DNA of 64,000 nucleotides from positions 576,001-640,000 of the forward strand of contig OY970212.1 in NCBI GenBank assembly GCA_963713925.1, read 5' to 3'. Position numbers and translations under genes: made by a program. This document shows positions 25,167 to 45,969 of this stretch, one piece after another. How positions within the stretch are numbered: the stretch's first letter is position 1; each line of letters begins with the position of its first letter. A model generated the notes under the pieces. That model was not told where the DNA came from. It did not search any database and saw nothing but the letters and a program-made list of their open reading frames with translations. The stretch is from an uncultured bacterium (GTDB taxonomy: Bacteria; Babelota; Babeliae; Babelales; Vermiphilaceae).

Positions 25167-25272
25167 GTCTTCGCCAAGTCATCCTTTGGGTGCCTCGGCT
25201 TCGCCTGGCTCAAGTGCCGCCACTGCTTGGCTAGGGATTAAGTTTTTTAGCATAGGTGCATTGGCACAGCCA
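25164..25272. repeat. Two successive family C repeats after tRNA-Asn
   Basis: CCAGTC-TTCGCC..GGCTTC-GCCTGG then GCCACTGC..GCATTGGC-ACAGCCA. Confidence 0.7.
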
Positions 25273-25294: not shown

Positions 25295-25371
25295 GGGGCT
25301 GTAGCTCAGTTGGTTAGAGCGTCCGCCTGTCACGCGGAAGGTCGCGGGATCGAGGCCCGTCAGCCCCGCCA
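25295..25371 (+). tRNA. tRNA-Asp(GTC); probable integration target
   Basis: Cloverleaf, anticodon loop CTGTCAC, acceptor GGGGCTG/CAGCCCC, GCCA; atypical T-loop ATCGAGG. Confidence 0.94.
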
Positions 25372-25501
25372 TACTTCGCCAAGGCTTTGTATGGCAGGCC
25401 ATCCTTAGCAAAAGTATGGACATAATTAAGATTTTAAGGCAATTCAGAAATGAGTTGCCTTTTTTATGTGTTTTATCACGCCATAGCCTTGGCGAAGGCG
25501 G
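25368..25501. repeat. Family C repeat on tRNA-Asp CCA and inverted partner
   Basis: GCCATAC-TTCGCCAAGGCTTT-GTATGGC-AGGCCA; partner GCCATAGCCTTGGCGAAGGCGG. Confidence 0.8.
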
Positions 25502-25575
25502 ATTGCAATCATTTCCAATCCATGTTATAAACTGAGCAATCAACAGCGTTGAAATATACAAAAAGGAGTTCATCA

Positions 25576-27519
25576 ATGTTTATAACAGTTCTCTTTTCAC
25601 TACTCTTTTATAATTCGCTCTTTTCATACAATCCCGATAATCCTGAAATACCTTTTATTCCTGAAGAACCTGAAAAACCGCTTTACAATCCTCAACATAC
25701 TGATGATATTTATCGTGAATTCGGTATCGGGCAGTATGGTAATCGAAGAAAGTGGTTGAATCTTAATTGGGTAAGTAAAGATTCAGCTCTTTTTGAACGG
25801 CATAGAGAATGTAAGAATTGGTCACAAAAAGAATATGTTGTGGCAATAATTCATCAATGTTGTAATGAAGTTTCATTCCGAGATGATGATAGTGCTTCTC
25901 TCAACGGATACAATCTTTTTTACTCTGACGGTAGAAGACATTTTTATCTTCACCGTAATGATGAAGATCAGATTTTGAATCAAGCCGATTTGTATGAGTA
26001 TCAAGAATTTAGAAATATGGCGAGCTTTTTGGCCGGTTATAAAAATAAAATCCGCCAATTGTATTCGCTCATTCAATCGAATCAAAATGTACGAAATCAA
26101 TTGCGTCAGAATGCCATACGAGCAATTGAACAGCAGTATGAGGCTGTTCAACAACAAGAAGCCGCACGAGAGAAAGCTATAAGAGATTGGCAAGAGCAAG
26201 AAGCGCGCATAGAACAACAAGAGGTGGCTGCCAAAAGATTGCGTGAAGAACAAGAAGCATTCAGAAAACTTGGAGCTAAACGAACTGAAATCAGAAACAC
26301 TTTTAACGACCACTTAGCAGTTATCAAAAGTGAATCACAATCGTGGAATGATCTATCTGATATCACTCGTGAGTATAGTTTGTCATACGAACATCTTGAT
26401 AAACGAAACTCCGCGCTTGAAGCGATGAATAATGTAGGCGCAGTCTATACACAATCAAATTATGAGTTGAGTACTCCCATCGGTGGGATAATCAGTGAGT
26501 TTAATTATAATCCGAACACATTCACAACCAATTATGGCAATCAACTGCAACAGGTGGTTCATACAGAATGTATCGATATTTTAGGGCGTACAGCACAGTT
26601 GAATTTGGATGATTGCTTGTATGGTTACAGAGGGGATTTTGTTGATTGTATTGATGCGTCACGAGAATTTAATCAACTCGGACTAACTCACAAATCAACG
26701 GCAATTAATGATTTTTGTTGGACTATGCTTGATATCGGACAGGCAATGGGTAAAGGCGCGTGCCTCGGTGTATATTATGCGGCATATGATTTGGCGACTC
26801 ATCCCTTTCAAACGGGTCTTTGTCTTCTTGCCGGACAATATGTGTTGGCGTATCAAGCATGCAAGATTGCTTATGCGGTGGCTGATATTGCGATTACCTC
26901 ATGTTATGACAAAAGAACTGCTTATGAAAAGCTCGATTCCTATTTAGCGCCCGTTGATGCGTTGTTGACGCAATTTGAAAAAGGGGTTTCGGCAGCTCAG
27001 ATTGCTGGAACCGCAACGCAAGTAGCTGTTGGATACTATGCTCAGGGCAGGATGCTCAAAGGATTGAATTCTATTTATAGCAAGGCTCGAGTCAAGGCAG
27101 TTGATTTTATCAAGAGGTATCCACAAGCAGAACCGGAGCTATTTTTGACAACGCCTGAAGGAATGTTGTTGAAAAGTTCGGTTAATGAAGGTGGACATCA
27201 TTTTCCGCAACCTAATTCAGGTGCGGGAACATCGAAACCGAATTTCCTTGAAGAAGCTTTAAATAGAATAGATGTTAATAAAATTCGACATATTTTCAAC
27301 AAATCGGAACACAATTTGGCACCTCTTGTGAAAAAATTAGGTGGAAATGAAAACGTTATCAAAGAAGTTCTTCTGGCGCTTGAGGGAAAAATTCCGCAAA
27401 GCGGATTGTTTAAAGAGATTCCCGTTTCAGTGGGAGGATATATCGTTCATGTAAGGGGCATGGTTATAGATGGAATTCCTCGTATTGGAACACTTTTTAT
27501 AAAACCGGAGAATGTTTAA
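25576..27519 (+). CDS. Secreted polymorphic toxin with C-terminal putative RNase (Ntox35/BECR-like) domain
   Basis: Signal peptide, coiled coil, GS-rich linker, C-terminal RHIF..EHNL..VSVGG..VHVRG.VIDG.PRIGT; AAGGAG RBS. Confidence 0.65.
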   Translation: MFITVLFSLLFYNSLFSYNPDNPEIPFIPEEPEKPLYNPQHTDDIYREFGIGQYGNRRKWLNLNWVSKDSALFERHRECKNWSQKEYVVAIIHQCCNEVSFRDDDSASLNGYNLFYSDGRRHFYLHRNDEDQILNQADLYEYQEFRNMASFLAGYKNKIRQLYSLIQSNQNVRNQLRQNAIRAIEQQYEAVQQQEAAREKAIRDWQEQEARIEQQEVAAKRLREEQEAFRKLGAKRTEIRNTFNDHLAVIKSESQSWNDLSDITREYSLSYEHLDKRNSALEAMNNVGAVYTQSNYELSTPIGGIISEFNYNPNTFTTNYGNQLQQVVHTECIDILGRTAQLNLDDCLYGYRGDFVDCIDASREFNQLGLTHKSTAINDFCWTMLDIGQAMGKGACLGVYYAAYDLATHPFQTGLCLLAGQYVLAYQACKIAYAVADIAITSCYDKRTAYEKLDSYLAPVDALLTQFEKGVSAAQIAGTATQVAVGYYAQGRMLKGLNSIYSKARVKAVDFIKRYPQAEPELFLTTPEGMLLKSSVNEGGHHFPQPNSGAGTSKPNFLEEALNRIDVNKIRHIFNKSEHNLAPLVKKLGGNENVIKEVLLALEGKIPQSGLFKEIPVSVGGYIVHVRGMVIDGIPRIGTLFIKPENV

Positions 27520-28062
27520 ATGTGGAAACAGCAGCTTAGGAAACTTGAACAAAATAAAAAATGGGATGAGGGTATTTCTCTGCTTCAAGATGTTCTTGCG
27601 AAAAATCAGAATGATCTTGATGCATATATATGCCTGAATTATTTACTTATTAACTTGTTGATAGAAGAGGATTTTGATGACTCTAAACATGATTTTTATG
27701 CTCGGACGGCAAAGCAAGCCTTTGTCGATTCCTTCCAAAAATTTCATGATAATGCAGAATATTTATTTTTTACTGCAATTACCTGTTATATAGCGGAATA
27801 TTATTATGATCTTGATTTTTCACAAGTTCAAGCGATGATTCGAAGAGCGGTAGAGCTTGACCCTGAAAATATTTTGTATAAATGGGGCTATTATTTATAT
27901 TTACATCAAAACAATCCGGAGCACGCTAAAAAAGGTCTCCCGTATGCACATATTATACTTGATAAGCATTCTCGAGAGCATAAGTATCTGGAATCAAAGG
28001 GCGCAATAGGATTTTATATTCTCGATATTATGCAAAACTCTACGAAAGAGCTTTCCAATTAA
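27520..28062 (+). CDS. Putative cognate immunity protein (TPR-like helical)
   Basis: ATG directly follows toxin stop (TAAATG); RRAVELDPEN TPR-like motif; no signal peptide. Confidence 0.6.
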   Translation: MWKQQLRKLEQNKKWDEGISLLQDVLAKNQNDLDAYICLNYLLINLLIEEDFDDSKHDFYARTAKQAFVDSFQKFHDNAEYLFFTAITCYIAEYYYDLDFSQVQAMIRRAVELDPENILYKWGYYLYLHQNNPEHAKKGLPYAHIILDKHSREHKYLESKGAIGFYILDIMQNSTKELSN

Positions 28063-29582
28063 ATTCCTTTCATAAAGGGGGTTCGTTTGAATGTATTCCA
28101 TCTGAAAGTTCGAAGTGTGCCCAAAGTGAGCCGCCATAGTAGTCTATCGGCGGAATTAAGTATCAAATCGAAGGGCGAATGTGCGATGTAGAGCACATTT
28201 TCACCTTCGATTTTTAAGTTCGATAGAACAAGTGCAATTAACTGCCTCTTTTCTTCCACTTCCGAACTTTCAAAAAGATCATACGCACGGCTTACAAGAT
28301 CCAGTACATATTTTGCAGTCGTATAGTAGTTATCTTCAGCATCTTGTAATTGGCTCATGCGAGCTGCCAATTGTGCGCTTTCATCACGGAATGATTGGTA
28401 AAATCTGTCATATTCGCTCTCAGTAATTCTCCCGCGGAGTTTATCAAGGTACAAATTATCCATCATTTTGGTTACGTTTTTTTGTTCCTTTGTGATCTTT
28501 TCATATTCCTTGTTATGGAAATCTATTTTGTTTTGATGAACTTCATCTAATGTGCCCTTTATTTCTGCAAGGATGTCAGCTGGAACTTGGAGCCTTCTAA
28601 ATACAGAACGCAGTTGTTCAGTGACCTCTTCTTCACGAAGCCATTTAGCGCCATGCTTGCCTTTATATTGGGTGCAATGGTAGTAGACATTTCCTTTTTG
28701 TTCTTCTGCGGTGATGGCACAGTCGCAGTGTGCGCAACGAAGCATGCCTCGGTATATGAAAGGCTTGCCGGCAAATTTAAACGGCTTCTTATTAAAACCT
28801 TCGCGCACTTGTTTTGCTTGGTCATAAAGGGAAGGTGAGATGATGGTTGGGTAGCGATGTGGATATTCCTTTCCTTTCACGAGCATAACGCCATGAAAGA
28901 AAGGATTTTTCAAGATTTTACCCATTTGGCTTTTGGGCCATTTCAACCCATGTTCTGAATTTATCTTTTGCACTAATACCTCAGTCGAGTAAGTGCCGGA
29001 TGCATAGAGTTCAAATATTTTTCTGATGATATGGGCTGAATATTCATCAACAATGATATCCGTTGCTCCATTTTCTCGTTTTATATTTTTATACCCAAAG
29101 GGTGCTTTTGAAAGCCATTCGCTTTTGCGGAGCTTTTGCTCTTGGGCCCTTTTAACGTTGTCACTAATGGCATCCGAATAATATTTGGCCAATCCAAGGC
29201 TGATGCTAAATTGAAACTTTTCAACGGCGGAGATGCGGCTTGTGATCACTTGCCCATCAGAGACGAAATGAAGCTCGAGTTGATCACTGAGGGCTTTGTC
29301 ATAAAGAACTGAAATTCGCTTATCAAAGACGTTTCTTGAAAGGCGATCTACTTTATCGCAGCACACGGCAATCTTTTCAGGCTGATTGATTATAAGGTCA
29401 ATAATCCCATCAAATTCAGTACGATCGTCGGTATAGGCACTTTCATCAAAGCTGTAGACTTCCTGAATGGTAAAGCCTTTGTTCTGGCAATACTTTTCGA
29501 GCCGTGCCACCTGGGCGGGCAGAGAATTGCCGGCTTCTTTTTGTTCTTCTGTGCTGACGCGCGCTATTAGGATTGCTTTCAT
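28059..29582 (-). CDS. Large serine recombinase (integrase)
   Basis: ARVSTEEQ catalytic Ser, DKVDRLSRN, recombinase domain ILKNPFFHG, Zn ribbon CAHC..YYHC, coiled coil. Confidence 0.95.
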   Translation of the reverse strand: MKAILIARVSTEEQKEAGNSLPAQVARLEKYCQNKGFTIQEVYSFDESAYTDDRTEFDGIIDLIINQPEKIAVCCDKVDRLSRNVFDKRISVLYDKALSDQLELHFVSDGQVITSRISAVEKFQFSISLGLAKYYSDAISDNVKRAQEQKLRKSEWLSKAPFGYKNIKRENGATDIIVDEYSAHIIRKIFELYASGTYSTEVLVQKINSEHGLKWPKSQMGKILKNPFFHGVMLVKGKEYPHRYPTIISPSLYDQAKQVREGFNKKPFKFAGKPFIYRGMLRCAHCDCAITAEEQKGNVYYHCTQYKGKHGAKWLREEEVTEQLRSVFRRLQVPADILAEIKGTLDEVHQNKIDFHNKEYEKITKEQKNVTKMMDNLYLDKLRGRITESEYDRFYQSFRDESAQLAARMSQLQDAEDNYYTTAKYVLDLVSRAYDLFESSEVEEKRQLIALVLSNLKIEGENVLYIAHSPFDLILNSADRLLWRLTLGTLRTFRWNTFKRTPFMKGI

Positions 29583-29769
29583 AATGATGCCTCTGCTAGA
29601 GATGAACCGTTTTATCGGCTAGCAGTGTATCATAAGCACGAGATTTCGATAGGAATTTTCGGTGGGGATGGTGGATGTTTGACACTGGTTGCTTATCATA
29701 TTAGGATTAATATTATGAGTAATTTGCGTTGTTAAATTTTATCATAAATATAATTGTAATAGGGATGCT

Positions 29770-30084
29770 ATGAAAAAAATATTGATTGCTTTTTTGGTGT
29801 TGACAATGCAAGTTGCAGTTGCAGAACTTTCTTATGATTCAAGAACGGGAAAATATTATTCGAAAAATGCACCCAGAAATATCAATCAAATCGAATACAA
29901 TGAACTTGCAGTTGTTTTTTTTAAAAGAATAAATAAAATACAGAACATTGTGCCAGGGGCTGAGATAGCAGGCGCTTTTGGAATGCTAAGAATGGTCGGA
30001 ACACCCACTGCTTTGCATTTGATTAAAGATTTAAAAGCTTGGTTCGAAGCAATAAATAACGATATGAAAGATATTGGTATATAA
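29770..30084 (+). CDS. Small hypothetical secreted protein
   Basis: Signal peptide MKKILIAFLVLTMQVAVA. Confidence 0.7.
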   Translation: MKKILIAFLVLTMQVAVAELSYDSRTGKYYSKNAPRNINQIEYNELAVVFFKRINKIQNIVPGAEIAGAFGMLRMVGTPTALHLIKDLKAWFEAINNDMKDIGI

Positions 30085-30098
30085 TCAAGGTTGCTTTC

Positions 30099-31196
30099 TT
30101 AGGATCGTGTTTTTTTAATGATAATTTTTTTGATGAAGGAAAGTGGAGATTGACTGATAGCGAGTTGGATGTCGTTTACTTCTGCCATCAGTCGAGACAA
30201 GGTTCTTTGATTTGAAACAGTAAGCATAGCTTGTAATTCTCTTATATTCAGAGCATCCATTACTTTCTTTAACCCGTAAATCTGCAACACCCGTCTCAAA
30301 CTCAGGTCAGGATTATAGAATATCAAATCGGCTAACAATGCTTTGCCGTCGGCTTTATAGTCGATTAACGTTGAACGTTTTCTTTCCACTTCATCGATGT
30401 AGTGACAGAGCACGCTTTTCGATATCGCGGGCTTGAAGAGTTTTTTAAATGAGAGATCACTCTTTATCCCGAGCTTGGTAAACAGTTGCTTCATTTTCTG
30501 CCGCTTGTTCAATCGAACTTCCATGCGCAAGACTTCTAATTTCTTTTTTCCATCAAGCGGAGGGAGGAAGTTCATTTGTATAGCATTATCTTTTTCCAGG
30601 CTTCATCTTTCGCTCTTCTTAGCCATGTGTAGATCTTTAATCTTGTCATAAAAAACCACCTCATAAGAATTACAATGCCATTTGTAGCTATGTCCTTCGT
30701 TACGGTAATCCGTTTGGTTGGTATCCAACGAGCGTTTGACGTTGGCCTCTTTTATCTTATTTATGTAATGGTAAGGGGTTGAGCCATCCGAGAGGATTAT
30801 GTTTTTTGAGTAATGGATGGTCAATACGGGTGCTTTTGCAAGTTCGGCGGTAGTTGTGACAACCCCCATGTCGGCAAGCACGGCGGCTAATTTTTCGACT
30901 AATCGATTGAAATCTTTGAATCTAAGCTCATGAAAGTTATTTCCAAAAAAGAGCTTAGGTAATGAGAGATCTATCTTGAGCATGATTTCTTGTCGGCCCG
31001 CGAGATTAGTTCTCCGAGCCAATGTAAGCCGTGGCTTATAAATGCCGGCAGCTAATTCTTTTTGTGTTGGATTTTGCTTGGATAAGATGCCCGATGTTGA
31101 TCGATCCAGCACCCACCGGGCGGATGGTTTGAACTTTTCAACATTCGTAACCTGAAAAGAATCTGAACCCAGAAGAAGAACTATCGTATCTATCAT
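30099..31196 (-). pseudogene. Phage/plasmid-type replication initiator (Rep_trans/CRI-like) interrupted by in-frame TGA at 30603-30605
   Basis: ORFs 30603-31217 and 30099-30575 are in one frame (..SER*SLEKDNAIQMN..); MIDTI start, LSLPKL.FGNN, VFYDK, LRMEVRL motifs. Confidence 0.7.
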
Positions 31197-31449
31197 GATC
31201 TGCCTTGCTATGAACAAATGCTGTGTGCATAAAAGATACCGTAGATACGGAGAAATAAAAAGGCTCGCTGCCTAAACGAGCCTTGATGGAGGTTATTTTT
31301 GTTTTAGATTTTGATTTACGAGTTGATTTGGTCTTTTTATCTTTGTTGACGCGCTTATCAACTTCCATAAGCAACATAACAAACGAAACCAAACGATTAC
31401 GATCATCGATCGACAAAGTCATTTTTATGGATTCTTTCTTCAAAGCCAT
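31138..31449 (-). CDS. Small basic protein upstream of rep
   Basis: Helical N-terminus and K-rich tail; overlaps rep start. Confidence 0.45.
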   Translation of the reverse strand: MALKKESIKMTLSIDDRNRLVSFVMLLMEVDKRVNKDKKTKSTRKSKSKTKITSIKARLGSEPFYFSVSTVSFMHTAFVHSKADHDRYDSSSSGFRFFSGYEC

Positions 31450-31780
31450 AACTGCTTTCAGAGATATAAAATGTAGAGCTTATAAAGCTCACAATAACGT
31501 ATATTAATAAATTGGATGATGGGTGGATGAATCTTAGCTCTGTGTGAGACTATATTCGCGCCATAAAAAGAACAGACACGGTTTGTGGGCTGTAGTGACG
31601 TGCGATTGGTTCATTGTTATCTCCTTGGTGTCGATGCTTTTACTACTTCGAAGAAATAATAACGAGGAATATTGATAAAATCAAGCGGAAAACTTTTGTT
31701 TTATCCCATTGCGTCTTCTTGTTTTGTTACTTACCTTGTACTTAATATTGAATTAATCTATTTCAAAAAAGAGGTTTTTA

Positions 31781-32482
31781 ATGAAGAAAATTAACATGGC
31801 TCATTTGGAAGAAGCTTTTTTGTTACAGCAGTATGCGGAGGATCGAAAAATAATTTTTGAAAACCCAAGAGAGCGAGTGAAAGAGAATCAATTGCGTAAA
31901 GGCCAAAGTATACCGGATGCTATTATTCCTGAATTAAATGAGTGGGTTGAGCTTACCACTTTTTCTCGAAGTGAGAGAATGCGCTCACTGATCGGAGAAA
32001 TAAGAAAGTATCCAGATAGATTTCAAAACATGAGGTATATTCCAGGATACTTATTTGGAGATTTTAGGCCATTAGAAGTAGAAGCATATAATGCTATCGT
32101 TAGGAAAAATAGCAAGGACTATAGTCAATTTTCTTCCTTAGCAGGCTTGTCACAGAATGGCATTCTTTTACTTCGATTTGTGAATATTGATCCTTTTCAT
32201 GATATCAAAGAGTACAATAAATTAATTAGTATTTTGAGTGATGAAATAGTTTTATTTACCCGGGGAGTGCATCAAAGCCAATTTTGCCAAATTGTGTTTG
32301 GCGCATATGTTTGCGACAGAGGAGTTTGGCAAACAAAATTTACAGTGGTTGCCGATAAGGATAAAATGGCAAGACTTAGAAACCGAAATGTAAATGAAGA
32401 AAAAATATTAAATGAAATTAGAATTAGGCACATTCAATTAGCGGAGAAGAATTCGTTATATTCCAATAATCGTAATATTTAA
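31781..32482 (+). CDS. Hypothetical protein
   Basis: 233-aa AT-rich ORF with GAGG RBS. Confidence 0.7.
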   Translation: MKKINMAHLEEAFLLQQYAEDRKIIFENPRERVKENQLRKGQSIPDAIIPELNEWVELTTFSRSERMRSLIGEIRKYPDRFQNMRYIPGYLFGDFRPLEVEAYNAIVRKNSKDYSQFSSLAGLSQNGILLLRFVNIDPFHDIKEYNKLISILSDEIVLFTRGVHQSQFCQIVFGAYVCDRGVWQTKFTVVADKDKMARLRNRNVNEEKILNEIRIRHIQLAEKNSLYSNNRNI

Positions 32483-32524
32483 TGACTCATACACTCTTTG
32501 AATAAGCTGTAATTCAGGAGAGAA
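32483..32524. repeat. Truncated copy of recombinase-tail/att repeat
   Basis: TGACTCATACACTCTTTGAATAAGCTGTAATTCAGGAGAGAA, near-identical to 34204-34245. Confidence 0.85.
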
Positions 32525-33347
32525 GGCGTGAACTATACCAGAAACCATGGCTTTTAATCCGTGGGGCATTTTTATGATGGGCACAATACTTACCTTCTTT
32601 TACTAATTCATCTGAAATTTTTATCCATGACTTCTTAGACAGATATCCATCTTTATCGGTTTCATTCTCGGTATCTGATTTGATAAAACTTTTCTCACGT
32701 ACACACTGAGCGCATGCGGAAAGATAAGCAGCCTCTGTGTCGGCTCGTTTTTCCTGATAACGATTTAGCAGCTTACTTATTGCATATGAATTGACTAATG
32801 TAAATAGACCCGTCAGTGCCATCTTCGTATTTGATAAATTTGTATTGTCTCCACGATTATCAAAAAGAGTTTTTTCTAGCAAAGAATCCGTGGCATAGCA
32901 TAACAAAGGCACAGTGAATAACGCAATAAGGAGACTTGATCCCCTATCACCATACTTAACATGCGTCGCTTCATGAAACAGGGTTGTTTTTTGTTCTGCA
33001 TAAGAGAAAGTGTCCCAGTCAGATCCTAGATAAACAGCATCTGCGCGCGCCTGTGCTATATTTTTTGTGGGCGATGATGTGTGGTATAAAGGCAACTGTT
33101 TTCTTTTGGGGATACCATGAACATCTTGTATTTCTTCCCATAGTTTTTGTAATTCGGGAGAAACTGGCTTCCCTTTTGACCTCACTAAGCGCTCAATAGG
33201 GGCGGCTCCGTATTTACTAAATAAATAGACCGGCTCTGATCGACCAAACGCGCCAAAAGCTTTGTCAAACCATGTTGGTTGTGGTTGAGCTAAAACAAGC
33301 ATGGGTAAGCCGAGAATGACACGGAAAAGAATTTTTGGGATCTTCAT
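32514..33347 (-). CDS. Secreted/membrane zinc metallopeptidase (M48-like)
   Basis: HEATH motif, two TM helices, downstream EKRAD. Confidence 0.75.
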   Translation of the reverse strand: MKIPKILFRVILGLPMLVLAQPQPTWFDKAFGAFGRSEPVYLFSKYGAAPIERLVRSKGKPVSPELQKLWEEIQDVHGIPKRKQLPLYHTSSPTKNIAQARADAVYLGSDWDTFSYAEQKTTLFHEATHVKYGDRGSSLLIALFTVPLLCYATDSLLEKTLFDNRGDNTNLSNTKMALTGLFTLVNSYAISKLLNRYQEKRADTEAAYLSACAQCVREKSFIKSDTENETDKDGYLSKKSWIKISDELVKEGKYCAHHKNAPRIKSHGFWYSSRLLS

Positions 33348-33586
33348 GAAAACCTCTCATTTATAACCATTCTTAAACATTTTCTATTATAATATATTAT
33401 ACCAGATTTACCCATAAAAACAACCGCTGCCCACTAAAAATCAGCCCTTAATGCGAATGTTTACTACAGTAATTCAGGGGAAAACGCTATAAAACACCTC
33501 AAATTTATCGTTTTTCATTATTGACAAACTGAAATATATTGGTATTCTGGGAATATACATAAAACTTAAAACTAATGGAGATTTCT

Positions 33587-34045
33587 ATGAAAAAACAAAT
33601 AATTTTTCTTATTCTTGGATGCCTGTTTACTATTTTTCAATCACAAGCGATGATGCACCGAGCATTCGGTAGACAAATGGTTCAAAAAATGGGCGCATCT
33701 TTAAAGGCAAACACGAGAGCTTTTTATTCAAAAAATGGACAAGTCAGCGAGCAAACAAACGAAAGAATAGTTCACATTCTCGCAAAAGGTATGCAGGGAA
33801 TTAGTGGAATATTGGGTGGAAGCGTAATACAGTTTCTCGGTTCGCCTTCAATGCAGGCTTGTGTGAATGATAAATCAAACCTTATTTACTTTCTGCTTGC
33901 CATGCCGCCAGCTGCGGCAGCTGTAACCGGAGGTCTTCCTGGTTTGATCGCTTTTTCAACATTATACGCATTACCGGCTTATGCAGTACATGACGCGTAC
34001 AAAAAAGAAAAGAAACAATTACTAGAAAGCAGGAAAAATAGTTGA
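33587..34045 (+). CDS. Small secreted protein with basic N-terminal extension and Gly/Ala-rich TM helices
   Basis: Signal peptide ending QSQA; GGAG RBS; TTGACA at 33521; downstream hairpin. Confidence 0.75.
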   Translation: MKKQIIFLILGCLFTIFQSQAMMHRAFGRQMVQKMGASLKANTRAFYSKNGQVSEQTNERIVHILAKGMQGISGILGGSVIQFLGSPSMQACVNDKSNLIYFLLAMPPAAAAVTGGLPGLIAFSTLYALPAYAVHDAYKKEKKQLLESRKNS

Positions 34046-34162
34046 TTTTAAAATTAACTTAACAAATAACTTTTTGAATAGAATAAGCTCCTATGTTCAT
34101 TTTTTGAATATAGGAGCTTTCTAATTGTGGAGAACGACAATGCTTTTAAACCACGATACAAG

Positions 34163-34479
34163 TATCTATGGTCTTATGCAAAGCTTTGTTACTTTAACCC
34201 CAGTGATTCATATACTCTTTGAATAAGCTGTAGTTCAGGAGAGAATGTAACTTCTCCGTTTCGAAACATGTCTACTAAGTGCCGCCATCCTACGCATAAA
34301 GCTACGGATGGCAGGCCATTCAGTAATGATGTAAGAGCAAAAAAATATATAGTACAAATGAGCGTAGGATGGCCTTCGAAGCACTTAAAGGTGCGAAGTA
34401 GGACTGAGTTATATACGCCACACGGTATTAATAATTTATTAATTAAAAAAGGTCGCTTTCAAAGCGACCTTTTTTAATT
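34163..34479. repeat. att-like junction block: orphan recombinase C-terminal tail (34189-34287, minus), CCGCCA core, family C repeat pair, palindromic terminator
   Basis: Minus strand reads WRHLVDMFRNGEVTFSPELQLIQRVYESLGLK*; paralogous to 37127-37332. Confidence 0.8.
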
Positions 34480-34576
34480 ATCTTAGATATAAGGTATTAT
34501 GGGATCTATCAGTTATAGAGCTTAGCGCAATCCCTGGCGCGCCAAGGGGCCACACTTTTATTAAACAATAAAGAAG

Positions 34577-35128
34577 TTAATCCCAATCATTGTCTGCAGC
34601 GAACAGCTCAAATGGATAACCAACTTTTTTATATACTTCACGCATTTCCAGCTGCATCTTGCTAAAATGGCCAGGTGCATATTTATCCTGCAAGGCGATA
34701 TAATCTTTCATGAATGCTTTTGAAGATCTATCTCCATGGTGTTTAGCTGCCAATGCATCTGCCTCTGCAATGAATGCCGGGGAGCCAAACTTACTTGTTT
34801 CCTTTGAGTTTTTGGCCATTGTTGGAGCAAGTGCTTCAGTCAATCGAGAAAAATTCTCTGTGCCCGGCGCCCATTCCTCAAGCACACGTTTTTTATCCGG
34901 ATCAGCCTTGGCTGCTGCATGTTTTTCAGCACTTATATTCATCAAGGTTTCATTAGCATTCAGCGTTATGCTTGAAGCCTTTTCCTCCTCGACCGGCGTA
35001 ATGATGAGCGACTTGCCATCCGTCTTGAACTTCACTACCGATCCCTCCTGCATATTAAGCAATTCCATGATTGCTCGATCAAGGATTAAGGCATTGCTAT
35101 TGCCATATTTGACCAATTTCTTTAGCAT
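34577..35128 (-). CDS. AbrB/MazE/SpoVT DNA-binding domain protein
   Basis: KKLVKYGNSNALILDRAIMELL..GKSLIITP. Confidence 0.85.
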   Translation of the reverse strand: MLKKLVKYGNSNALILDRAIMELLNMQEGSVVKFKTDGKSLIITPVEEEKASSITLNANETLMNISAEKHAAAKADPDKKRVLEEWAPGTENFSRLTEALAPTMAKNSKETSKFGSPAFIAEADALAAKHHGDRSSKAFMKDYIALQDKYAPGHFSKMQLEMREVYKKVGYPFELFAADNDWD

Positions 35129-35288
35129 GTTAGCTCCTTAAAAAATAAGGTCGGTTAAACATTTATATGACATAATATTATACAATGTTATTACATTGTC
35201 AAATAAAAGTTCTGCTATCTATATAGACAAAAACATCAAAAATAGTACTCTGGAAATAGGGATTTTTTCTTATCAGTTAGGGATTTTC

Positions 35289-35957
35289 ATGAAAAATTTA
35301 TTATTAGGTTTATTGTTTGTTTCAACTGCTTTCTGCTCAGAACAACAATCGGTTAGGATTGTTGATTATGAGCCATCGCATAAGGATGCTGCGATGGAGA
35401 TTTTCTTTCAAGATCCAGAGCTGCTTTTTGGTGGAAGTCAATTGGTCACCATGGGTATTTGGACCATGGAGCAATTTAATAGTGAGAACAGAAAAGTTAT
35501 GGAAACAATTTTGGCTGATCCGCTCAGAATAAAAAGAATTGCGATCGATTCAGGAAAGATAGCTGGGTTTATCAACTTCTGCAAAACAAAAGAGCACAGT
35601 TTGGAATCATTAAAAAGACAAGCAGCATTTTCGTTGACGCCGGAGCAAGAAGCACAATTTGTTGTTATGAATCCTTATTTAAAGAAAACGGATGCTGAGT
35701 GCGAGATTTTTGCAAAAATTGAAACGGTAGCAGTTTCTAGGGATTTCAGACGTCGCGGACATGCAAGAACTTTAATCAAAAATTCAATTGATTATATCAA
35801 ACAAAATTGGCCGATGATTCATCGAGTTGAGCTTGATGTGAATGCAGTCAATGAAAATGCAAAAAAGTTATATGAATCTGAAGGTTTTAAACAATCTGTA
35901 ATTCAGCCACAACGTCTAGTTATGATGCAAGCTGTCCAATACGAAAAAGCTCTATAA
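35289..35957 (+). CDS. GNAT acetyltransferase with signal peptide
   Basis: AVSRDFRRRGHA, LDVNAVNENAKKLYESEGF. Confidence 0.9.
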   Translation: MKNLLLGLLFVSTAFCSEQQSVRIVDYEPSHKDAAMEIFFQDPELLFGGSQLVTMGIWTMEQFNSENRKVMETILADPLRIKRIAIDSGKIAGFINFCKTKEHSLESLKRQAAFSLTPEQEAQFVVMNPYLKKTDAECEIFAKIETVAVSRDFRRRGHARTLIKNSIDYIKQNWPMIHRVELDVNAVNENAKKLYESEGFKQSVIQPQRLVMMQAVQYEKAL

Positions 35958-36012
35958 AATTTATTAAAGAGTCGATCTTTTTTTCTAATATCTTATTGTG
36001 TTTGGGGATATA

Positions 36013-37059
36013 ATGTTTGTAATCAGAATCATTCAAGTCAAAATAATTATTTTTATGGCTTTTTTGTGCATTTCTACCAATACTGAATGCTTTATCAATA
36101 AAGTCTCTGTATGGAAGATTGGTGATAAATACATGTTTAATTGTCATGATGTTCACAATTATTCTGAAAAATTAAATAAAGATCAGATTGATAAATTTCA
36201 AGAGATCATTCCGCAACTTGATGATGCATTATTGATTATTGAAAATCAGCCAATATCTGCTCAAGAATATAGATCCCACAATCTATTTAACACAGCAGCA
36301 GAAATTCAAGATTTATTTTTGAAGAGATCGTTTACCATCCAAGAAGCTGATTTTAGGCAGAAACAATCATGGTCTTCTCATAGATGTCTTCAATCAATTT
36401 CGTTTGATAATAATAGATTAAATGACCTAGATAAAGAGTTAATTGAGCGTGGTTTGACTACAAAAGCGATAGCACGAGAATTTGAAGATGCTTTTAACCA
36501 AGTTAAACACATGATTGACAGTGTGTTATCTCAACAAAAGATATCATCGGCAATGGGGCAAATGCTTCATCAGACATGCGAGAACACTAAGCTTTTTTGG
36601 GGTAAAGAGTTGGAAGCATGGAAGGAATTTGATGGTTCACTACTTCAGTATTGTTTAAAAAATGATTGCTTTACGCAAGAATATCTAGTTAATTCGTTGA
36701 ATTTTTCAAGACACATTTTAGATATCAAGATGTTTCTTTCGGTGATTACGTCAGATAGAATGATGATTTTCGTAACAGCAGGATCCGCGCATTCTCAGAC
36801 TATAGAGTATTTTTTGAAATGTGCACGAGCTACAGAACTCTCAAGTGAAGGGAAAGAATTTCCTCTGGATGGTCTCAGATTGCCATCAGATATCCCAGTT
36901 GAAAAAGTTCCTCGCTATACGATGACAGCCGACGAGCTGTATTTGAAAACAGGTGAACAAATTCATCCTGTATCGGCTCAATTTTTTAATGGTCTAATTA
37001 ATCCGGAGTTCTATAAAGCTCCCTCATTGTGGTCACGATTAATTAGTTTTTTCGTGTGA
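36013..37059 (+). CDS. Hypothetical secreted protein (possible TraB/Tiki-like metalloenzyme)
   Basis: N-terminal HDVH, IIE, C-terminal FVTAGSAH. Confidence 0.55.
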   Translation: MFVIRIIQVKIIIFMAFLCISTNTECFINKVSVWKIGDKYMFNCHDVHNYSEKLNKDQIDKFQEIIPQLDDALLIIENQPISAQEYRSHNLFNTAAEIQDLFLKRSFTIQEADFRQKQSWSSHRCLQSISFDNNRLNDLDKELIERGLTTKAIAREFEDAFNQVKHMIDSVLSQQKISSAMGQMLHQTCENTKLFWGKELEAWKEFDGSLLQYCLKNDCFTQEYLVNSLNFSRHILDIKMFLSVITSDRMMIFVTAGSAHSQTIEYFLKCARATELSSEGKEFPLDGLRLPSDIPVEKVPRYTMTADELYLKTGEQIHPVSAQFFNGLINPEFYKAPSLWSRLISFFV

Positions 37060-37126
37060 ATGATTAAATAAAGAGAGTCAGTAATCCTTTTCGACCAATA
37101 GTTACGAACCGTTTTGGCGGTACAAT

Positions 37127-37332
37127 TATCTATGGTCTCATAAAAAAGCTTGGTTACTCCTGGTGACTCATAGACTCTTTGAATAAGCTGTAATTCAGAA
37201 AAAAATAATACTTGTCCGAAGCATGTTTACTAAGTGCAGCAGTCTTCGCTTATCCGGGTCTTCCGACTCGGCAAGCTACGCCCTGGCTGTCGCCATAGTA
37301 AAAATAAAAGGTCGCTTTCAAAGCGACCTTTT
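37127..37332. repeat. Degenerate second att-like junction block
   Basis: TATCTATGGTCT..ACTCTTTGAATAAGCTGTAATTCAG..CATGTTTACTAAGTGC, family C repeat, identical AAAAGGTCGCTTTCAAAGCGACCTTTT. Confidence 0.8.
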
Positions 37333-37461
37333 ATCGCGTGATACCATTTATGGGAACGGCCTGTGGTTAAGTATTGAGGGGAGGAGGGGTTACAAGGCTC
37401 TTGATAATTGCTAATCTGTAATTTGTACAGATGTTTTTTGTTTGATTAGAGGTATGCAATT

Positions 37462-38082
37462 ATGAATAAATTGTTTTTTGGTGTGATGTTGCCCTTGCTT
37501 ATTGTTGGTTCAACGCAATCGGTAAACACAAAAAAAGGGGCCAGGTTCTCAAGGCGTAAAATAGTAGCTATTATGCAGAAGAGAGCTGAGCTCATTCCAT
37601 CTGTAGATCAAAAAAATAATGATGAAGCGGAGCAAGAGTTCGATATAACAACGCCATTCAAAACAGATTTCATTGAAGAAAAATCAGAAAAAAGGATTTT
37701 TAAATACAGTTTGCATAGTTTGCAACGCATGAGGGAAAGACAAATCTCAACTGCGGCAGTTGCTCACGTATTGAAGAATGGTTCAGGAATGGATTCACGC
37801 GGTGTAATAAAAAAAACTGCGATATATAATAATAAAAGAATATCAGTTGTGATGAACCCGATTAAAAAACTAATTATTACTACTTATGCAGTCAATAAAT
37901 TAAAATCTATCAAATTAGGCAATCATACTACTGACATGAAAAAAATCCGTTTTTATAAACAGTTTCTAAATACACCATTTAAATCTACAAAATCAGGTGA
38001 TTTTACCACTGATATGAAAAAGAGTCGTTCGTATAAACGATTTTTAGATGCAAAATTTAAATTTCTATCTTTAAATAGATAG
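37462..38082 (+). CDS. Secreted DUF4258-like protein with C-terminal 26-aa duplication
   Basis: YSLHSLQRMRERQIS..V..VL..G..IITTY. Confidence 0.65.
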   Translation: MNKLFFGVMLPLLIVGSTQSVNTKKGARFSRRKIVAIMQKRAELIPSVDQKNNDEAEQEFDITTPFKTDFIEEKSEKRIFKYSLHSLQRMRERQISTAAVAHVLKNGSGMDSRGVIKKTAIYNNKRISVVMNPIKKLIITTYAVNKLKSIKLGNHTTDMKKIRFYKQFLNTPFKSTKSGDFTTDMKKSRSYKRFLDAKFKFLSLNR

Positions 38083-38092
38083 GGATATTTTC

Positions 38093-38638
38093 ATGAAAAA
38101 ATTATTGTTAGTTGTTGCTTTATGGGTGGCTCCTCTGATAACTGCAAATGAGGGCAGCCTTCATACGCTTATCAATAAACTATCTGACCATCTGTATTGT
38201 GCTGCGGAGATGACTGGCGGCGGAAAAGACGGTAATGAGTGCGCCGCAATTATTGCTGAATACGTTACAAATATTAAAAGTAGTTTGCAGCAAAAAGATA
38301 TATCTGTAAACCAGTTTGAAGGTGGCCTCACGCCTCTCATGTTGGCCTCGTATTATCATCAATGGGAAGTTATTGATCTTTTATTGAAGGCAGGAGCAGA
38401 TCGCTCCCTTCAAGATAAAGATGGGCGTTCATCTGCTGATTATGTAGTATTGCGAGCTAATGCGAGCCCAGTAAGTATTGCTGGTATGACAAATCTCATT
38501 ATGTCCGGTTATTTTACTGAGCAGCGGTATCATAAATGTTTAGATTTACTTGTTGATAATACAATAAAGCGAATGTGGTTAAGCAGCCGGAACAAGATAA
38601 GACATTTTCTAAACAGGATTATCTACGGGGTATCTTAA
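38093..38638 (+). CDS. Secreted ankyrin-repeat protein
   Basis: GLTPLMLAS..VIDLLLKAGAD..QDKDGRSSADY; signal peptide. Confidence 0.88.
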   Translation: MKKLLLVVALWVAPLITANEGSLHTLINKLSDHLYCAAEMTGGGKDGNECAAIIAEYVTNIKSSLQQKDISVNQFEGGLTPLMLASYYHQWEVIDLLLKAGADRSLQDKDGRSSADYVVLRANASPVSIAGMTNLIMSGYFTEQRYHKCLDLLVDNTIKRMWLSSRNKIRHFLNRIIYGVS

Positions 38639-38827
38639 GCATTTAAAATGCCAATTGTTCAGAATCGACAATAATAAAGATTGTATAAAGGGAAATCCTC
38701 AGTCTTTTAGCCAAAGATTGGGGATTTTTTATTGCCTGCTTTAGTAAACTCATGGGAAGATTTGTTTTGGGAAAACATAAAGGCTCGTAGGTGCATTTAT
38801 TCCCTTTAAAATTGTGATATTTAGACC

Positions 38828-39298
38828 ATGAACCATATAACGCTTAATACTCTGCGAGACTTCAATAGTGTAATCAACGCTGATCTTGTTTTTACAGGCA
38901 ATGTTGATGAAGAAATTGATGCAAATATGTGGGCGATAACATTCGATTGTTCATTGGCAGAATATATAACAATTGTTGAACTGAAAAAATGTATCGATGC
39001 ATTTTTAGAAAAAAAGAGAGAACAGGCGGCGGAATGCGCGATTCCCATAGCTTGCTATATATGGGTAGACGAACAGGCATTCCAACTATGTTTGAATATC
39101 ATATCAGGCCACACGACAAAGCTACCGTTTGGTTGCAAAATTAATTTAGTGGAAGATATAAATCCGATATTGGAAAAATTTCTTACAAGTGCAAGAGTAG
39201 GAGTTATTCCGTGGGAAGATATTATTTTTGTAGATGAGTTTTCAGATGAGGATGACGGCCAAGATTATACATTGGATGTTTATCTAGATTTAATGTGA
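38828..39298 (+). CDS. Hypothetical acidic protein
   Basis: 156-aa ORF, YIWVDEQA..LPFGC. Confidence 0.65.
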   Translation: MNHITLNTLRDFNSVINADLVFTGNVDEEIDANMWAITFDCSLAEYITIVELKKCIDAFLEKKREQAAECAIPIACYIWVDEQAFQLCLNIISGHTTKLPFGCKINLVEDINPILEKFLTSARVGVIPWEDIIFVDEFSDEDDGQDYTLDVYLDLM

Positions 39299-39498
39299 GC
39301 AAGAGCAAATTTAGCCAATTTGCGCACTGACATTTCATCTTGTTCCATTAAGGCTAAGATAAGTTCTGAAATAGCAAATTCCTTGTATCCTTGTTTATAA
39401 TCGCGGAGTTCTTTTGGTGTTAATGATTCGATAAATTCATCATGAGTAGTTTTTATTTTTCTTGAAGATGTTTTTTTATTCATAATATGATTCATCAT
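39280..39498 (-). pseudogene. Truncated HTH antitoxin-like fragment
   Basis: YKEFAISELILALMEQDEMSVRKLAK ends after the first HTH helix, where it meets the convergent gene. Confidence 0.5.
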
Positions 39499-40511
39499 TA
39501 TCTAAATCTCAGTTTCGGGATGTCGTAACCTATATCTTCGTCGGTGAGAAAAACGGGTTGCTTGCATCCGGGGTAAATAAAGTCGGCTATCGTGAAAAAT
39601 TTTTGATATGCTTCACGCTCGAGTGGGTTGGGAAGAAATCTACATTGTAAATCTTGTGCGTCATAAGAACCCGCTTCAAAGATCGTCTCATACCCGATAC
39701 TTTCTAAGTAATACGCAACCCCTACGCAATGTGCAATGCCAACGAACAGGGTAACGTTTTTGTCGGTATGGCGCGCTATGAAATCAAGATATCCGAAGTC
39801 GGCAAATCGATATCGAAAAAAATCCTCCAATGTGGAGGGATAATGTAATCTTCTCGTGATGGCTTGAGCATGTTTTTCCATGAAAGATTTAAATTTCGGG
39901 TCATATTCATCGCTTGTTGCAAGAAGGTTTTGAATGTCTGTTCTGAAAGAATCTTTGTTTTCACGTAATTCATGACAAAATAGATCATATTTATCTTTAT
40001 CAACGGGAAAATTTAAATGATAGTACAGTTGGGGATATTTGTTCCGAATATCATATTCAGTGATCTCAATTGTCGGATCAAGTAGGTATGAACCAATATG
40101 CGCCGCTTTCGATCTAAAGGAGCTATCTAGACTAGAATCGGCTAAAATACCCAATCGAAAGATTAAAGTAATGGCGGCAGGGTCAGGGTCCGATAGAGCT
40201 TTACCCCAATATTTTATCGAATCCAATTTATTTACACTTCGTTTCTCGACTAGGACCCGCTCTTTTGTGGAATCACTTGTGTTTAGAAACTTAACTAGCG
40301 GTTCAGTTATTGCGTTAGTAGCTGATCGATCTAAATCCTGAGTTCTGTATGTGGCATGAGAATCATTTAGAAACTCAGTATGAATCAAATCTCCCGCCAA
40401 GCGAACAATGTGTCCATCAGAATGTGTCATTACTTTTAACGTGACTATCCAGCCGTACATTGTCATAGAACTGCACAAACAAATGAAGTAAAACAGGGTG
40501 ATTGTTTTCAT
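39498..40511 (-). CDS. Hypothetical secreted protein (possible TraB/Tiki-like)
   Basis: Signal peptide; GDLIH, VLVE, LFVGIAH. Confidence 0.55.
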   Translation of the reverse strand: MKTITLFYFICLCSSMTMYGWIVTLKVMTHSDGHIVRLAGDLIHTEFLNDSHATYRTQDLDRSATNAITEPLVKFLNTSDSTKERVLVEKRSVNKLDSIKYWGKALSDPDPAAITLIFRLGILADSSLDSSFRSKAAHIGSYLLDPTIEITEYDIRNKYPQLYYHLNFPVDKDKYDLFCHELRENKDSFRTDIQNLLATSDEYDPKFKSFMEKHAQAITRRLHYPSTLEDFFRYRFADFGYLDFIARHTDKNVTLFVGIAHCVGVAYYLESIGYETIFEAGSYDAQDLQCRFLPNPLEREAYQKFFTIADFIYPGCKQPVFLTDEDIGYDIPKLRFR

Positions 40512-40674
40512 GTGTGTTAAGACTCTCTCTTTTTAAAGTAAATCGAAAAATTGATACGTCGATAAAATCTAGAATGATTTTCAGAAGAAGTAAATGTTAA
40601 TATCTGATGTTATTGGAGTCGGGTAGTAATATCAGGATTGGTTTTCTCATGCATTTTTAATACCTCCATTTTTA

Positions 40675-40704
40675 TTGACTTTTTCATTGCCAATTTGTTA
40701 CTAT
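40675..40704 (+). promoter_or_regulatory. Sigma70-like promoter, duplicated at 45585
   Basis: TTGACT-18 nt-TACTAT. Confidence 0.6.
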
Positions 40705-40749
40705 TTGAATTATGGAAGGTAGTGTATTACATCAATTAAGGAGGTTTTT

Positions 40750-41034
40750 ATGAAGTTACATTTCTTTTTATTATCTATGATCACCGTTCTTACTGTATCT
40801 ACGGGGTTACATGCTTTTGATATTGTTGGAAGCGCAGTTGAAGGCGCAGGGGATATAGTAAGTGATGTTGGTCGCGGTGTTAGTAACGTTGGTGGCGCTA
40901 TCGCCGATAGACCTTATTACTATGGTTATTATGACAACCATTACTATGGACGTCCTGTTGGCTATGATAGAATTTATGAAGTTCGTCCCGATCGTTATGT
41001 CGAACCGGTCTCTGTCGAAGAGATGGTGTACTAA
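40750..41034 (+). CDS. Small secreted Gly/Tyr-rich protein
   Basis: AAGGAGG RBS, signal peptide, terminator near 41091-41118. Confidence 0.8.
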   Translation: MKLHFFLLSMITVLTVSTGLHAFDIVGSAVEGAGDIVSDVGRGVSNVGGAIADRPYYYGYYDNHYYGRPVGYDRIYEVRPDRYVEPVSVEEMVY

Positions 41035-41249
41035 GATTGTTAGTGCCAGATATTTTATCTTCTTGATATAACAAGAGAAGATATGAATTTAAGGCTCCTG
41101 AAAAGGAGCCTTTTTTTTGTCGGTAAGATTTATCATAAAATAGTCTTCGAGAAAGTGCGCTTCTATGCGCTCTCATGGACAAAATCAGTGTGAGGAGTAA
41201 TATAAAAAGAGAATTTTCTTTTATCAGACCACATTTTTCAGGGGTTTTT

Positions 41250-41921
41250 ATGAAAAAACTATTGGTAAGTCTGTTATCTTTTGCAACCGCTGTATGCTTT
41301 GGAGAGGTAACGGTTGTTAATTATGATCCGGGTCACAAAGACGCCGTGATGGAGATGTGTCTTCAAGATTCAAAGCAGCTTGTTTGTGGAAGCGCAGTGG
41401 TCGACATGGGGCTTGCGACAACGGAGCAATTTAATGAAGAAGCCAAAAAAGTAATGGAAGCAGTTTTGGCTGATCCAAACAAAATAAAGTGGGTTGTTAT
41501 CGATTCAGGAAAAGTAATCGGGTTTGTTGAATTTTTTATGACAAAAGAGCAAAGCGTTGAGTCGATACTCAAACAAGTAAAAGCTCAATTTCCTCAATTA
41601 ACTACTGAACAAGAGTCACAAATAGCAGCCGGTTTCTCATACTTGAAAAAGACCGATGCTGAATGTGATCTTATTGGAAAGATTGAAAGCATTGTCGTTT
41701 CAAAAGATTTCAGGCGTCGTGGACACGCACGCATGCTCATTAAAAAAGCCATTGAGCGTATCAAGCAGGCTTTTCCTGAAATTAAATGGGTGGGACTTGA
41801 TGTCAATGCGGCCAATGAAGGAGCAAGAAAGCTGTATGAATCTGAAGGATTTACACAATCTGCAGTTCAACCACAGCATTTGGTTATGATGCAAGTAGTT
41901 CAATACGAAAAAGCTCTATAG
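41250..41921 (+). CDS. GNAT acetyltransferase with signal peptide (paralog of 35289)
   Basis: VSKDFRRRGHA, LDVNAANEGARKLYESEGF. Confidence 0.9.
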   Translation: MKKLLVSLLSFATAVCFGEVTVVNYDPGHKDAVMEMCLQDSKQLVCGSAVVDMGLATTEQFNEEAKKVMEAVLADPNKIKWVVIDSGKVIGFVEFFMTKEQSVESILKQVKAQFPQLTTEQESQIAAGFSYLKKTDAECDLIGKIESIVVSKDFRRRGHARMLIKKAIERIKQAFPEIKWVGLDVNAANEGARKLYESEGFTQSAVQPQHLVMMQVVQYEKAL

Positions 41922-41940
41922 ATTCATTTTTATAATCGAT

Positions 41941-41970
41941 AAAAAGACCGCTTTAAAAGGCGGTCTTTTT
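41941..41970 (+). terminator. Intrinsic terminator
   Basis: AAAAAGACCGC..GCGGTCTTTTT. Confidence 0.8.
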
Positions 41971-42166
41971 ATTAGGATAATTTCTTTTCATCCATGAGCT
42001 AAAGGTAAGACTTTTTCTGACCTTCAGCTTTCGAAATGAGAAAATTCGTAATTTTTCGCTAAAACAGTAGCTCGTCATTAACCCATTTTCGTGCAAATGC
42101 TTTGTGCAGCGCGAAAGTTCATGCTAGTATTGCCTCTAAATATCATTTTTTTCAGAAGGAGTATTT

Positions 42167-42862: not shown

Positions 42863-43035
42863 TAATAAATGGTCGATTTTAGGTTATCGCTCATGAAATG
42901 AGTTGACCTCTTTTAACGTTTCAAAGAGAACCGCTTTGCAAGAAATTATGCTTGTAAAGCGGTTCTCTTTTTGACAAAAAAATGTCTACATGTAACAATG
43001 ATTATTCGGAATTATTACTGTGAAGGGGCATTCTT

Positions 43036-44745: not shown

Positions 44746-44769
44746 TAAATTGTTGTAAAAAATGATTTC

Positions 44770-44798
44770 AAAAAGGTCGCTTAATCGCGGCCTTTTTT
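44770..44798 (+). terminator. Intrinsic terminator
   Basis: AAAAAGGTCGC-TTAATC-GCGGCCTTTTTT. Confidence 0.75.
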
Positions 44799-44975
44799 GT
44801 TCAAATATTCTCAAAAACCGATATTGACATTAAAAATCATTGCGGGCGAAAAGCAGTTCATGAGACTCTGAATTTGGAAATGTAGTTCGGGGCCTCCGCC
44901 GAAGTTTACGTGGATGGGGTAAAAAAAAGGGTTCCCCGAGTGAATTTATGCGCTTGGGTTTAAAAGGGATGATGT

Positions 44976-45518: not shown

Positions 45519-45584
45519 ATTTGTGTATATCTCTTCTTGTGCAAAACACCCTGAATGCAGGGTAAATGAGGGTAGTTCGATATA

Positions 45585-45942: not shown

Positions 45943-45969
45943 ATGACTACACATTCAAATTAAAGAGAG

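Follow-up and report, generated by a model that had tools for sequence, protein, structure and literature searches.

Recombinase-tail-bounded units stacked behind a tRNA-Asp gene in a Dependentiae genome: a probable accretion island of small serine-recombinase elements

Background

The array of accessory-gene units described here lies behind a tRNA-Asp gene in a 64,000-nucleotide stretch of the genome of an uncultured bacterium of the Vermiphilaceae (assembly GCA_963713925.1, contig OY970212.1, positions 576,001 to 640,000, forward strand; hereafter the window, to which coordinates refer unless a genome or locus is named), and its closest described counterparts are islands moved by large serine recombinases (LSRs). 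The ssrA islands of Dehalococcoides stand in tandem, with an LSR gene overlapping the left attachment site attL, and 15 of 31 are without an integration module; the authors of their description suggest that the LSR becomes whole only when the island is circular or lies behind a neighbouring one (PMC3146451). For the staphylococcal cassette chromosome (SCC), Ccr was shown by experiment to excise recombinase-less tandem cassettes (PMC11470126). A third source sets out for ICESt1/ICESt3 an accretion model of integration, decay to an integrase-less element and arrival of a newcomer at the restored tRNA end, and portrays integrative and mobilizable elements with serine recombinases as disrupting genes rather than restoring tRNA ends (PMC5704250).

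We propose that the window array is probably a tRNA-3'-end accretion island, assembled from small integrative elements whose LSRs belong to at least two clades, the older elements persisting as passive remnants. Such stacking of LSR elements at tRNA ends, with toxin-immunity pairs as frequent cargo, would constitute a route for accessory-gene gain in the host-dependent Dependentiae; the literature we searched, in which subscription journals were largely missing, yielded no description of such elements in this group.

Results

Severed recombinase tails as unit boundaries

The window is part of a single-contig 1.32 Mb genome, labelled G000 (handles in G denote genomes, those in L fetched loci), which is the sole representative of its genus among the genomes searched and has no congeneric genome for comparison. 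The following features delimit the array:

25295..25371, plus strand: tRNA-Asp(GTC), last in a Val-Asn-Asp cluster that is conserved in relatives
25366-25371, plus strand: site S0, CCGCCA forming the tRNA 3' end, here in an attB-like state (tRNA arm plus host repeat)
28059..28136, minus strand: clade-B LSR tail (T1, Asp subtype) with core S1 (28131-28136), providing the last 25 codons of the clade-A LSR
32483..32524, minus strand: truncated extra clade-A tail, core missing
34189..34287, minus strand: intact clade-A tail (T2, 32 codons plus stop) with core S2 (34282-34287), the right attachment site attR of unit 2
37118..37241, minus strand: decayed clade-A tail with stops and deletions, and site S3 with the damaged core CAGCA (37237-37241)

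As the preliminary description of this DNA had it, the tRNA 3' end CCGCCA at 25366 recurs at 28131 and 34282 and, in degraded form, near 37236 (GTGCAGCA at 37234-37241), and its parse into unit 1 (2765 bp), unit 2 (6151 bp) and unit 3 (2954 bp) was reproduced. The reported equal spacing of TTCGAA also holds, at 16 nt ahead of the core at both 28131 and 34282. CCGCCA is not significant alone, having 417 copies genome-wide and four on the plus strand of 25373-37332 against 1.9 expected, whereas TTCGAA-N16-CCGCCA occurs at only these two places in the 1.32 Mb. On the minus strand, the arms upstream of the cores translate in frame, starting at a Trp codon within the core, as LSR C-terminal tails, scoring 31-53 bits against tail profiles that were seeded largely from relatives, with the window's own tails also among the seeds. 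Peptides of the same kind terminate islands in relatives, and for these reasons we count the window sites as real. TTCGAA reflects a conserved Arg eight residues past the Trp of the tail.

By comparison with these tails, each boundary is best understood as the cut-off C-terminal tail of an LSR gene, split at the tRNA CCA end by integration; this upholds the earlier view that LSR attachment sites bearing recombinase tails delimit the units, some of which have no integrase. Two tail types are present, T2 at 34282, at 37241 (decayed) and at 32483-32524 (truncated), and T1 at 28131. The truncated tail, 93% identical over 42 bp to that at 34282, suggests a fourth, eroded boundary; this tail, the different clade of the 28131 tail and an in-frame stop in the Rep gene (below) were absent from the preliminary description.

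Three LSR clades at common targets

A match to the LSR was recovered in 51 of the 80 family genomes, and a tRNA (Asp, Gln, Glu or Arg) lies inside the locus in 24 of the 30 loci returned. At the junctions printed, the LSR gene enters the tRNA 3' end and stops within a few codons or in tRNA-derived sequence, while a tail at the opposite end of the island carries the core of the matching tRNA (CCGCCA for Asp, CAGCCA for Gln, ACGCCA for Glu). These LSRs form three clades, about 30% identical and using the same targets, each with an SH-aLRT of 100 in a quick tree that includes one duplicated row. The T1 tail goes with clade B in all six elements with a detected tail and T2 with clade A in 12 of 12 labelled elements, a count that leaves out two clade-C rows with a T1 or T2 tail behind them; the profiles cover T1 and T2, so that clade-C attR ends fall outside this mapping. 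T1 divides into separate Asp and Gln subtypes matching two clade-B subclades. Natural junctions in which a clade-A stub runs in frame into T2 exist at G000 1302811, L038 and L176, and they establish T2 as the native clade-A end.

G000 itself holds further members of the family. A second clade-A element at tRNA-Glu (G000 1308221-1318670) comprises an LSR, restriction-modification-like genes, an intact Rep and a T2 tail; near it, at 1302811-1303080, an inverted LSR stub is joined to a complete T2 tail. A clade-C LSR island at tRNA-Ala (G000 1047639-1066697) carries primase-like genes and two toxins related to each other, together with a series of putative immunity genes that are paralogues. Clade-A-like LSR stubs also occur at tRNA-Asn in records named Patescibacteria and others (L143-L148), which suggests that the LSR family crosses phyla. 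A family acting at tRNA CCA ends, with cores varying by tRNA, may interest integrase engineers.

Unit 2, the recognizable element

Unit 2 contains, besides the tails at its right end, the following genes:

28137..29582, minus strand: clade-A LSR body, 482 codons before the core, with resolvase, recombinase and Zn-ribbon domains
29770-30084, plus strand: ORF104
30099..31217, minus strand: Rep (Phage_CRI-like initiator), with an in-frame TGA at 30603-30605
31138-31449, minus strand: ORF103
31781-32482, plus strand: ORF233
32514-33347, minus strand: M48-like peptidase
33575-34045, plus strand: ORF156

The recombinase has PF00239, PF07508 and PF13408 above cut-off, along with the catalytic Ser10, DRLSR and CxxC, and is a large serine recombinase by this domain set and the catalytic Ser; relatives of this clade-A enzyme are placed with the same end in tRNA 3' ends. 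Its reading frame continues through S1 into a clade-B tail, clade-A and clade-B LSRs being 32% identical, and S1 is a hybrid junction resembling the attachment site of the circle (attP). Cross-clade junctions like S1 are also found in L054, L066 and L114. Rep aligns in one frame with a 381-aa homologue when the break is read as X, and this homologue scores 0.98 in a language-model feature atlas. The in-frame stop was confirmed by an independent contig, and a frameshift was ruled out.

The arm at 34270-34277 and the bases at 28137-28144 form an inverted repeat with 7/8 matches; its centre is the CC at 34282-34283, which from general knowledge of serine integrases we infer to be the crossover dinucleotide. 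As these arms, the eight bases after S1 and the eight ending four before S2, match, unit 2 is one element, nearly complete, with an intact LSR and a broken Rep. Across 15 clade-A elements the mean arm symmetry was 5.5/8, whereas 10 LSR-less T2 units had a mean of 2.8/8 (p=0.002), on picked values from kin that are not independent, with the T1 units and L104, L120 and L141 left out.

Unit 1, a putative toxin-immunity cassette

Between the tRNA and S1 lie the following features:

25372..25401, plus strand: host REP-like hairpin repeat, terminating in a second GCCA; not island-specific
25436..25459, no strand assigned: terminator-like hairpin common to unit 1 and a toxin unit at tRNA-Gln; three copies in G000
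25576..27519, plus strand: predicted polymorphic toxin, with an N-terminal/central region common to seven other G000 loci and a variable C-terminus
27520..28062, plus strand: putative cognate immunity protein, 180 aa, weak TPR

The toxin has no Pfam HMM match, and its C-terminus is Ntox35-like by language-model features alone (atlas 0.92; 180 of 256 features shared). A homologue of the immunity protein stands behind three of four distinct toxins with this C-terminus, against none of 35 rows without it (duplicates included), while a paralogue that aligns with the toxin only over residues 5-543 is followed by a CdiI_ImmP gene (E=6.5e-24). With a conserved N-terminus, a variable C-terminus and an adjacent putative cognate immunity gene, unit 1 has the predicted make-up of a polymorphic toxin-immunity locus.

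A paralogous unit without an LSR lies at tRNA-Gln (L001:11093-14149; G000 837093-840148, minus strand). It shares the terminator and promoter of unit 1, has another C-terminus and another immunity gene, and ends in a Gln-type T1 tail and core; no copy of this terminator was found in the 79 other family genomes, and a third G000 copy lies 2.2 kb beyond the tRNA-Gln unit. G034 has a degenerate T1 tail behind a third toxin. By hand count, an LSR of these elements or a tail is no more than 20 kb away from 14 of the 33 strong matches to the toxin. Four further toxin-immunity clusters are found elsewhere in G000, and a clade-C island at tRNA-Arg (L155-L156; G013 1007170-1016401) has four tandem toxins of the unit-1 family, between which no T1 or T2 tails were detected.

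The right arm of unit 1 is of the clade-B type and matches the left arm of the resident LSR at 2/8 positions, against 7/8 for the 34282 arm, and no clade-B LSR was found in G000. These data, and the damaged core of unit 3 (below), do not support the earlier proposal that one recombinase serves several units.

Unit 3 and the host repeat

The third unit and the DNA that follows it comprise:

34288..34473, plus strand: unit 3 left end, with variants of the host repeat and a terminator at 34447-34473 that recurs unchanged at 37306-37332
34577-35128, minus strand: AbrB/MazE-like gene, cargo
35196-35957, plus strand: GNAT gene, cargo
35998-37059, plus strand: orphan gene, cargo
37242..37332, plus strand: flank behind the array, host repeat of another variant and terminator

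The decayed tail of unit 3 shares 76% identity with the 34282 arm across 133 bp. S3 has CA in place of the inferred crossover CC, plus a 1-bp loss; as its tail is broken and its core CAGCA departs from CC, we take S3 to be dead. An AbrB gene 87% identical to that of unit 3 occurs in an LSR-less T1 unit of G012.

The hairpins behind the tRNA and the 34.3 and 37.2 kb cores had been described as the same repeat. They are different variants of one genome-wide family, with local alignment scores of 18-24 against the tRNA copy, at the level of the background median of 22, and the head of the family lies behind 20 of 38 tRNA ends against a background of 1.4-1.7%. The hairpin as a mark of cassettes was rejected on these grounds. 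What is truly common behind 34287 and 37241 is the 27-bp terminator, found only at those two places. In relatives, the repeat often precedes a small GIY-YIG gene to which the family is linked, and it is also inserted inside tails (L055, L037); further copies lie at 25167-25230 and 25473-25502 of the window, and the family often ends in a second GCCA.

Stacks, decay and flank copies in relatives

Stacks of this kind are frequent in the family. Forty tRNA-Asp regions were fetched, 33 of them with at least 7 kb behind the tRNA (3 of the 33 chosen for an LSR match). Tails are present at 16 of the 33 loci and at least two tails at seven, one second tail being weak; in seven of the 16 tail-bearing loci the unit beside the tRNA has no LSR. 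Comparison of these loci yields a series of decay. Frameshifted or stub LSRs of varied lengths stand directly at tRNA-Asp in L033, L042, L046, L054, L058, L068 and L069, and in L053 and L133 the core is occupied by the repeat and GIY-YIG gene, beyond which a remnant of the LSR N-terminus survives. In L055 (G001), the first 8 kb behind tRNA-Asp contain neither LSR nor Rep but at least four units bounded by tails, of which the first three have one gene each (a beta-CASP hydrolase and two ankyrin paralogues), the most integron-like case found.

Eight of 23 LSR-less units open with sequence copied from, or resembling, the flank that follows their own right core, scoring 45-614 against a between-genome background with a 95th percentile of 32 and a maximum of 80. 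None of 15 LSR-bearing units does so (Fisher p=0.01), a contrast that is partly built in, as such units start with the LSR. L164 has a 295-bp flank copy at 92% between tails of different clades, and in G013 a repeat variant is present only at both ends of one unit; one case (G012) is due to a 7-copy repeat and one to paralogous units, whereas other cases are not accounted for in this way. These units are attB-to-attR intervals, unlike classical cis-mobilizable elements (CIMEs); they could have arisen by LSR-independent copying from an empty-site allele, or be attR-type circles inserted by an LSR. In the loci examined, only single genes of LSR-less units recurred in a second genome, never an entire unit.

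Discussion

Accretion and its competitors

Under the accretion reading, the LSR gene of the free circle would span its own attP. Integration would take place at the last six bases of the tRNA, with crossover presumably at the first two (CC for Asp), leaving the gene body beside the tRNA and stranding a tail of about 25-32 codons at the far end as attR. The restored tRNA end would allow later elements to insert at the same spot, each event depositing a tail and core. In the order of events that this implies, unit 3, and probably also 32.5-34.3 kb, would be older clade-A leftovers. The integrase-less units would have lost their LSR side and acquired host flank at their start, either through a deletion that went along with insertion of the repeat and GIY-YIG gene into the core, or by copying of an empty-site flank, and would mostly be fixed passengers, at best co-transported with unit 2.

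Several observations weigh against this account. Unit 1 is tRNA-proximal and hence newest by simple accretion, yet neither an LSR nor a primase has left any trace in it, and the LSR that does survive is that of the older unit 2; the toxin paralogue unit at tRNA-Gln repeats the organization, terminator and promoter of unit 1. Across the sampled tRNA-Asp loci, a mobility-gene remnant is seen in only two of the seven tRNA-proximal LSR-less units, and G001 has three single-gene units of 1.5-1.9 kb with intact tails and no such remnant. Nor does plain internal deletion predict the flank copies in 8 of 23 LSR-less units.

The foremost competitor, which we judge unlikely, is an active cassette system in which integrase-less units travel as attR-type circles (tail-core-host flank-cargo) and enter the resident attL. 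An attL x attR reaction between molecules would yield attB-cargo-attP-LSR, the layout of unit 1, which does lie between attB-like and attP-like sites, and would give the resident LSR a tail; the clade-B arm of unit 1, its 2/8 arm match and the failure to find a clade-B LSR in G000 sit poorly with this, as does the damaged core of S3. The flank copies fit the re-insertion of such circles, L164 and G013 in particular, although the comparison with LSR-bearing units is partly built in and the G012 copy needs no duplication. That toxin units lie at two different tRNAs, and that the core and tail subtype of either unit agree with the tRNA beside it, point the same way, and Ccr moves recombinase-less cassettes (PMC11470126); on the other side, an entire LSR-less unit did not recur in a second genome among the loci examined, which include no congeneric one. 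The wider proposition, that integrase-less cargo including toxin-immunity pairs moves as attR-type circles, regenerates attB and gives its tail to the resident enzyme even across clades, with tail supply switching activity, is likewise one that we judge unlikely. If true, each incoming cassette could regulate the recombinase through its tail. Whether the stranded tail switches the enzyme is a question left by PMC3146451, and the window holds a small natural experiment on it: an intact LSR whose own tail is 6 kb off and to which a foreign tail is joined in frame.

Rather improbable, too, is the local production of unit 3 and 32.5-34.3 kb by tandem duplication or homologous recombination over the right end of unit 2, with a subsequent change of cargo, which would leave units 1 and 2 as the only separate integrations. 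The three T2 tails of the window have in common a block, at 76-97% identity, that is confined to them in this genome, and the duplication extends to the terminator; tails of one array are also alike in L055, L063, L069, L136 and L163 (arm scores 60-147), and units 2 and 3 of L055 are paralogues. Related elements circulating in one lineage would also yield similar tails, however, and units 2 and 3 of the window have no cargo in common; unit 1 is left unexplained, as are L164 and L053, in which tails from different clades adjoin (arm scores 16-17).

Chance matches or an assembly artefact, to which the commonness of CCGCCA (417 copies) and the want of an independent contig across 28131 or 34282 might point, are already largely refuted and highly improbable given tails of 31-53 bits (own tails among the profile seeds), the same junction types in many genomes, and contigs that agree at S3 and the Rep stop. 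One sequencing run contained part of the stretch (share 0.16), its contigs being patchy, of depth 1-3 and none across S1 or S2; these contigs, too thin to weigh either way, show no joint at a core, no circle and no empty site. A single 25502-34300 joint (side 20), from another run, connects repeats. Independent contigs match the assembly without difference over S3 (37081-37344) and over the Rep stop. A search for the T2 arm-core pattern returned seven metagenome loci, none viral and none identifiable as a circle.

Relation to known systems

The array works like the systems named here but is a member of none. The Dehalococcoides ssrA islands likewise have a CcrB-like reverse-strand LSR (DsiB) with its 3' end over attL and a variable C-terminus, and occur as tandem islands, some without an integration module, both of which are found here. 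They differ in target (a tmRNA T-loop with a 20-bp repeat, against tRNA CCA ends with 6 bp of identity), in a 6-gene module with a second recombinase, DsiA, against LSR and Rep, and in having one LSR clade, against three using common sites (PMC3146451). None of the DsiA-RecF-ParB-Mom module genes is among the window ORFs scanned against profile libraries; in an Rfam scan, tRNAs were the only matches above threshold. SCC/SCCmec (CcrAB, CcrC) shares the LSR, serial insertion at a gene 3' end and recombinase-less tandem cassettes, its target being rlmH rather than tRNA-Asp (PMC11470126). The window LSR falls far below the NCBIfam Ccr cut-offs (78.6 against 700, 68.8 against 900, 32.3 against 900). 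We know of no ccr gene split by its own att site.

CIMEs, as presented in PMC5704250, hold attL and attR, whereas the integrase-less units here hold attR and open with host flank (attB-like); their cognate left arm is absent (symmetry 2.8/8), and units 1 and 3 start with the host repeat. SSV-type archaeal integrases are alike in an att site within the integrase gene, splitting on integration, hybrid enzymes assembled from parts of differing origin, and target changes (PMC7253208). They are tyrosine recombinases, whereas the serine recombinase here sheds only about 30 C-terminal residues.

An integron-like system for shuffling genes had also been proposed for this array. Integrons are arrays of accessory genes between recombination sites, with IntI beside attI, attC sites and single-gene co-oriented cassettes. 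Here too an accessory-gene array has recombination sites between its units, but the sites are LSR gene tails, and units have two to seven genes on both strands, the single-gene units of G001 being an exception. The LSR is the only recombinase among the 23 ORFs scanned, a search that did not take in IntI elsewhere in the genome. The part of the proposal that stands is the presence of integrase-less units in an array; as a system it has precedent, since an LSR overlapping its own site, integrase-less tandem islands and a recombinase moving recombinase-less cassettes are already known from PMC3146451 (layout) and PMC11470126 (Ccr mobilization). New are the cross-clade junctions, the paralogous integrase-less toxin unit at tRNA-Gln and the flank copies in 8 of 23 units.

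DNA beyond the array

About 10 kb more of accessory DNA follows at 37333-47800, with DUF4258, ankyrin and MutS-like genes and a GNAT gene 59% identical to that of unit 3. No T1 or T2 tails were detected at 37.3-47.8 kb, though conserved synteny returns only at about 47.8 kb. The DUF4258 gene contains a 78-bp direct repeat at 37899-38054.

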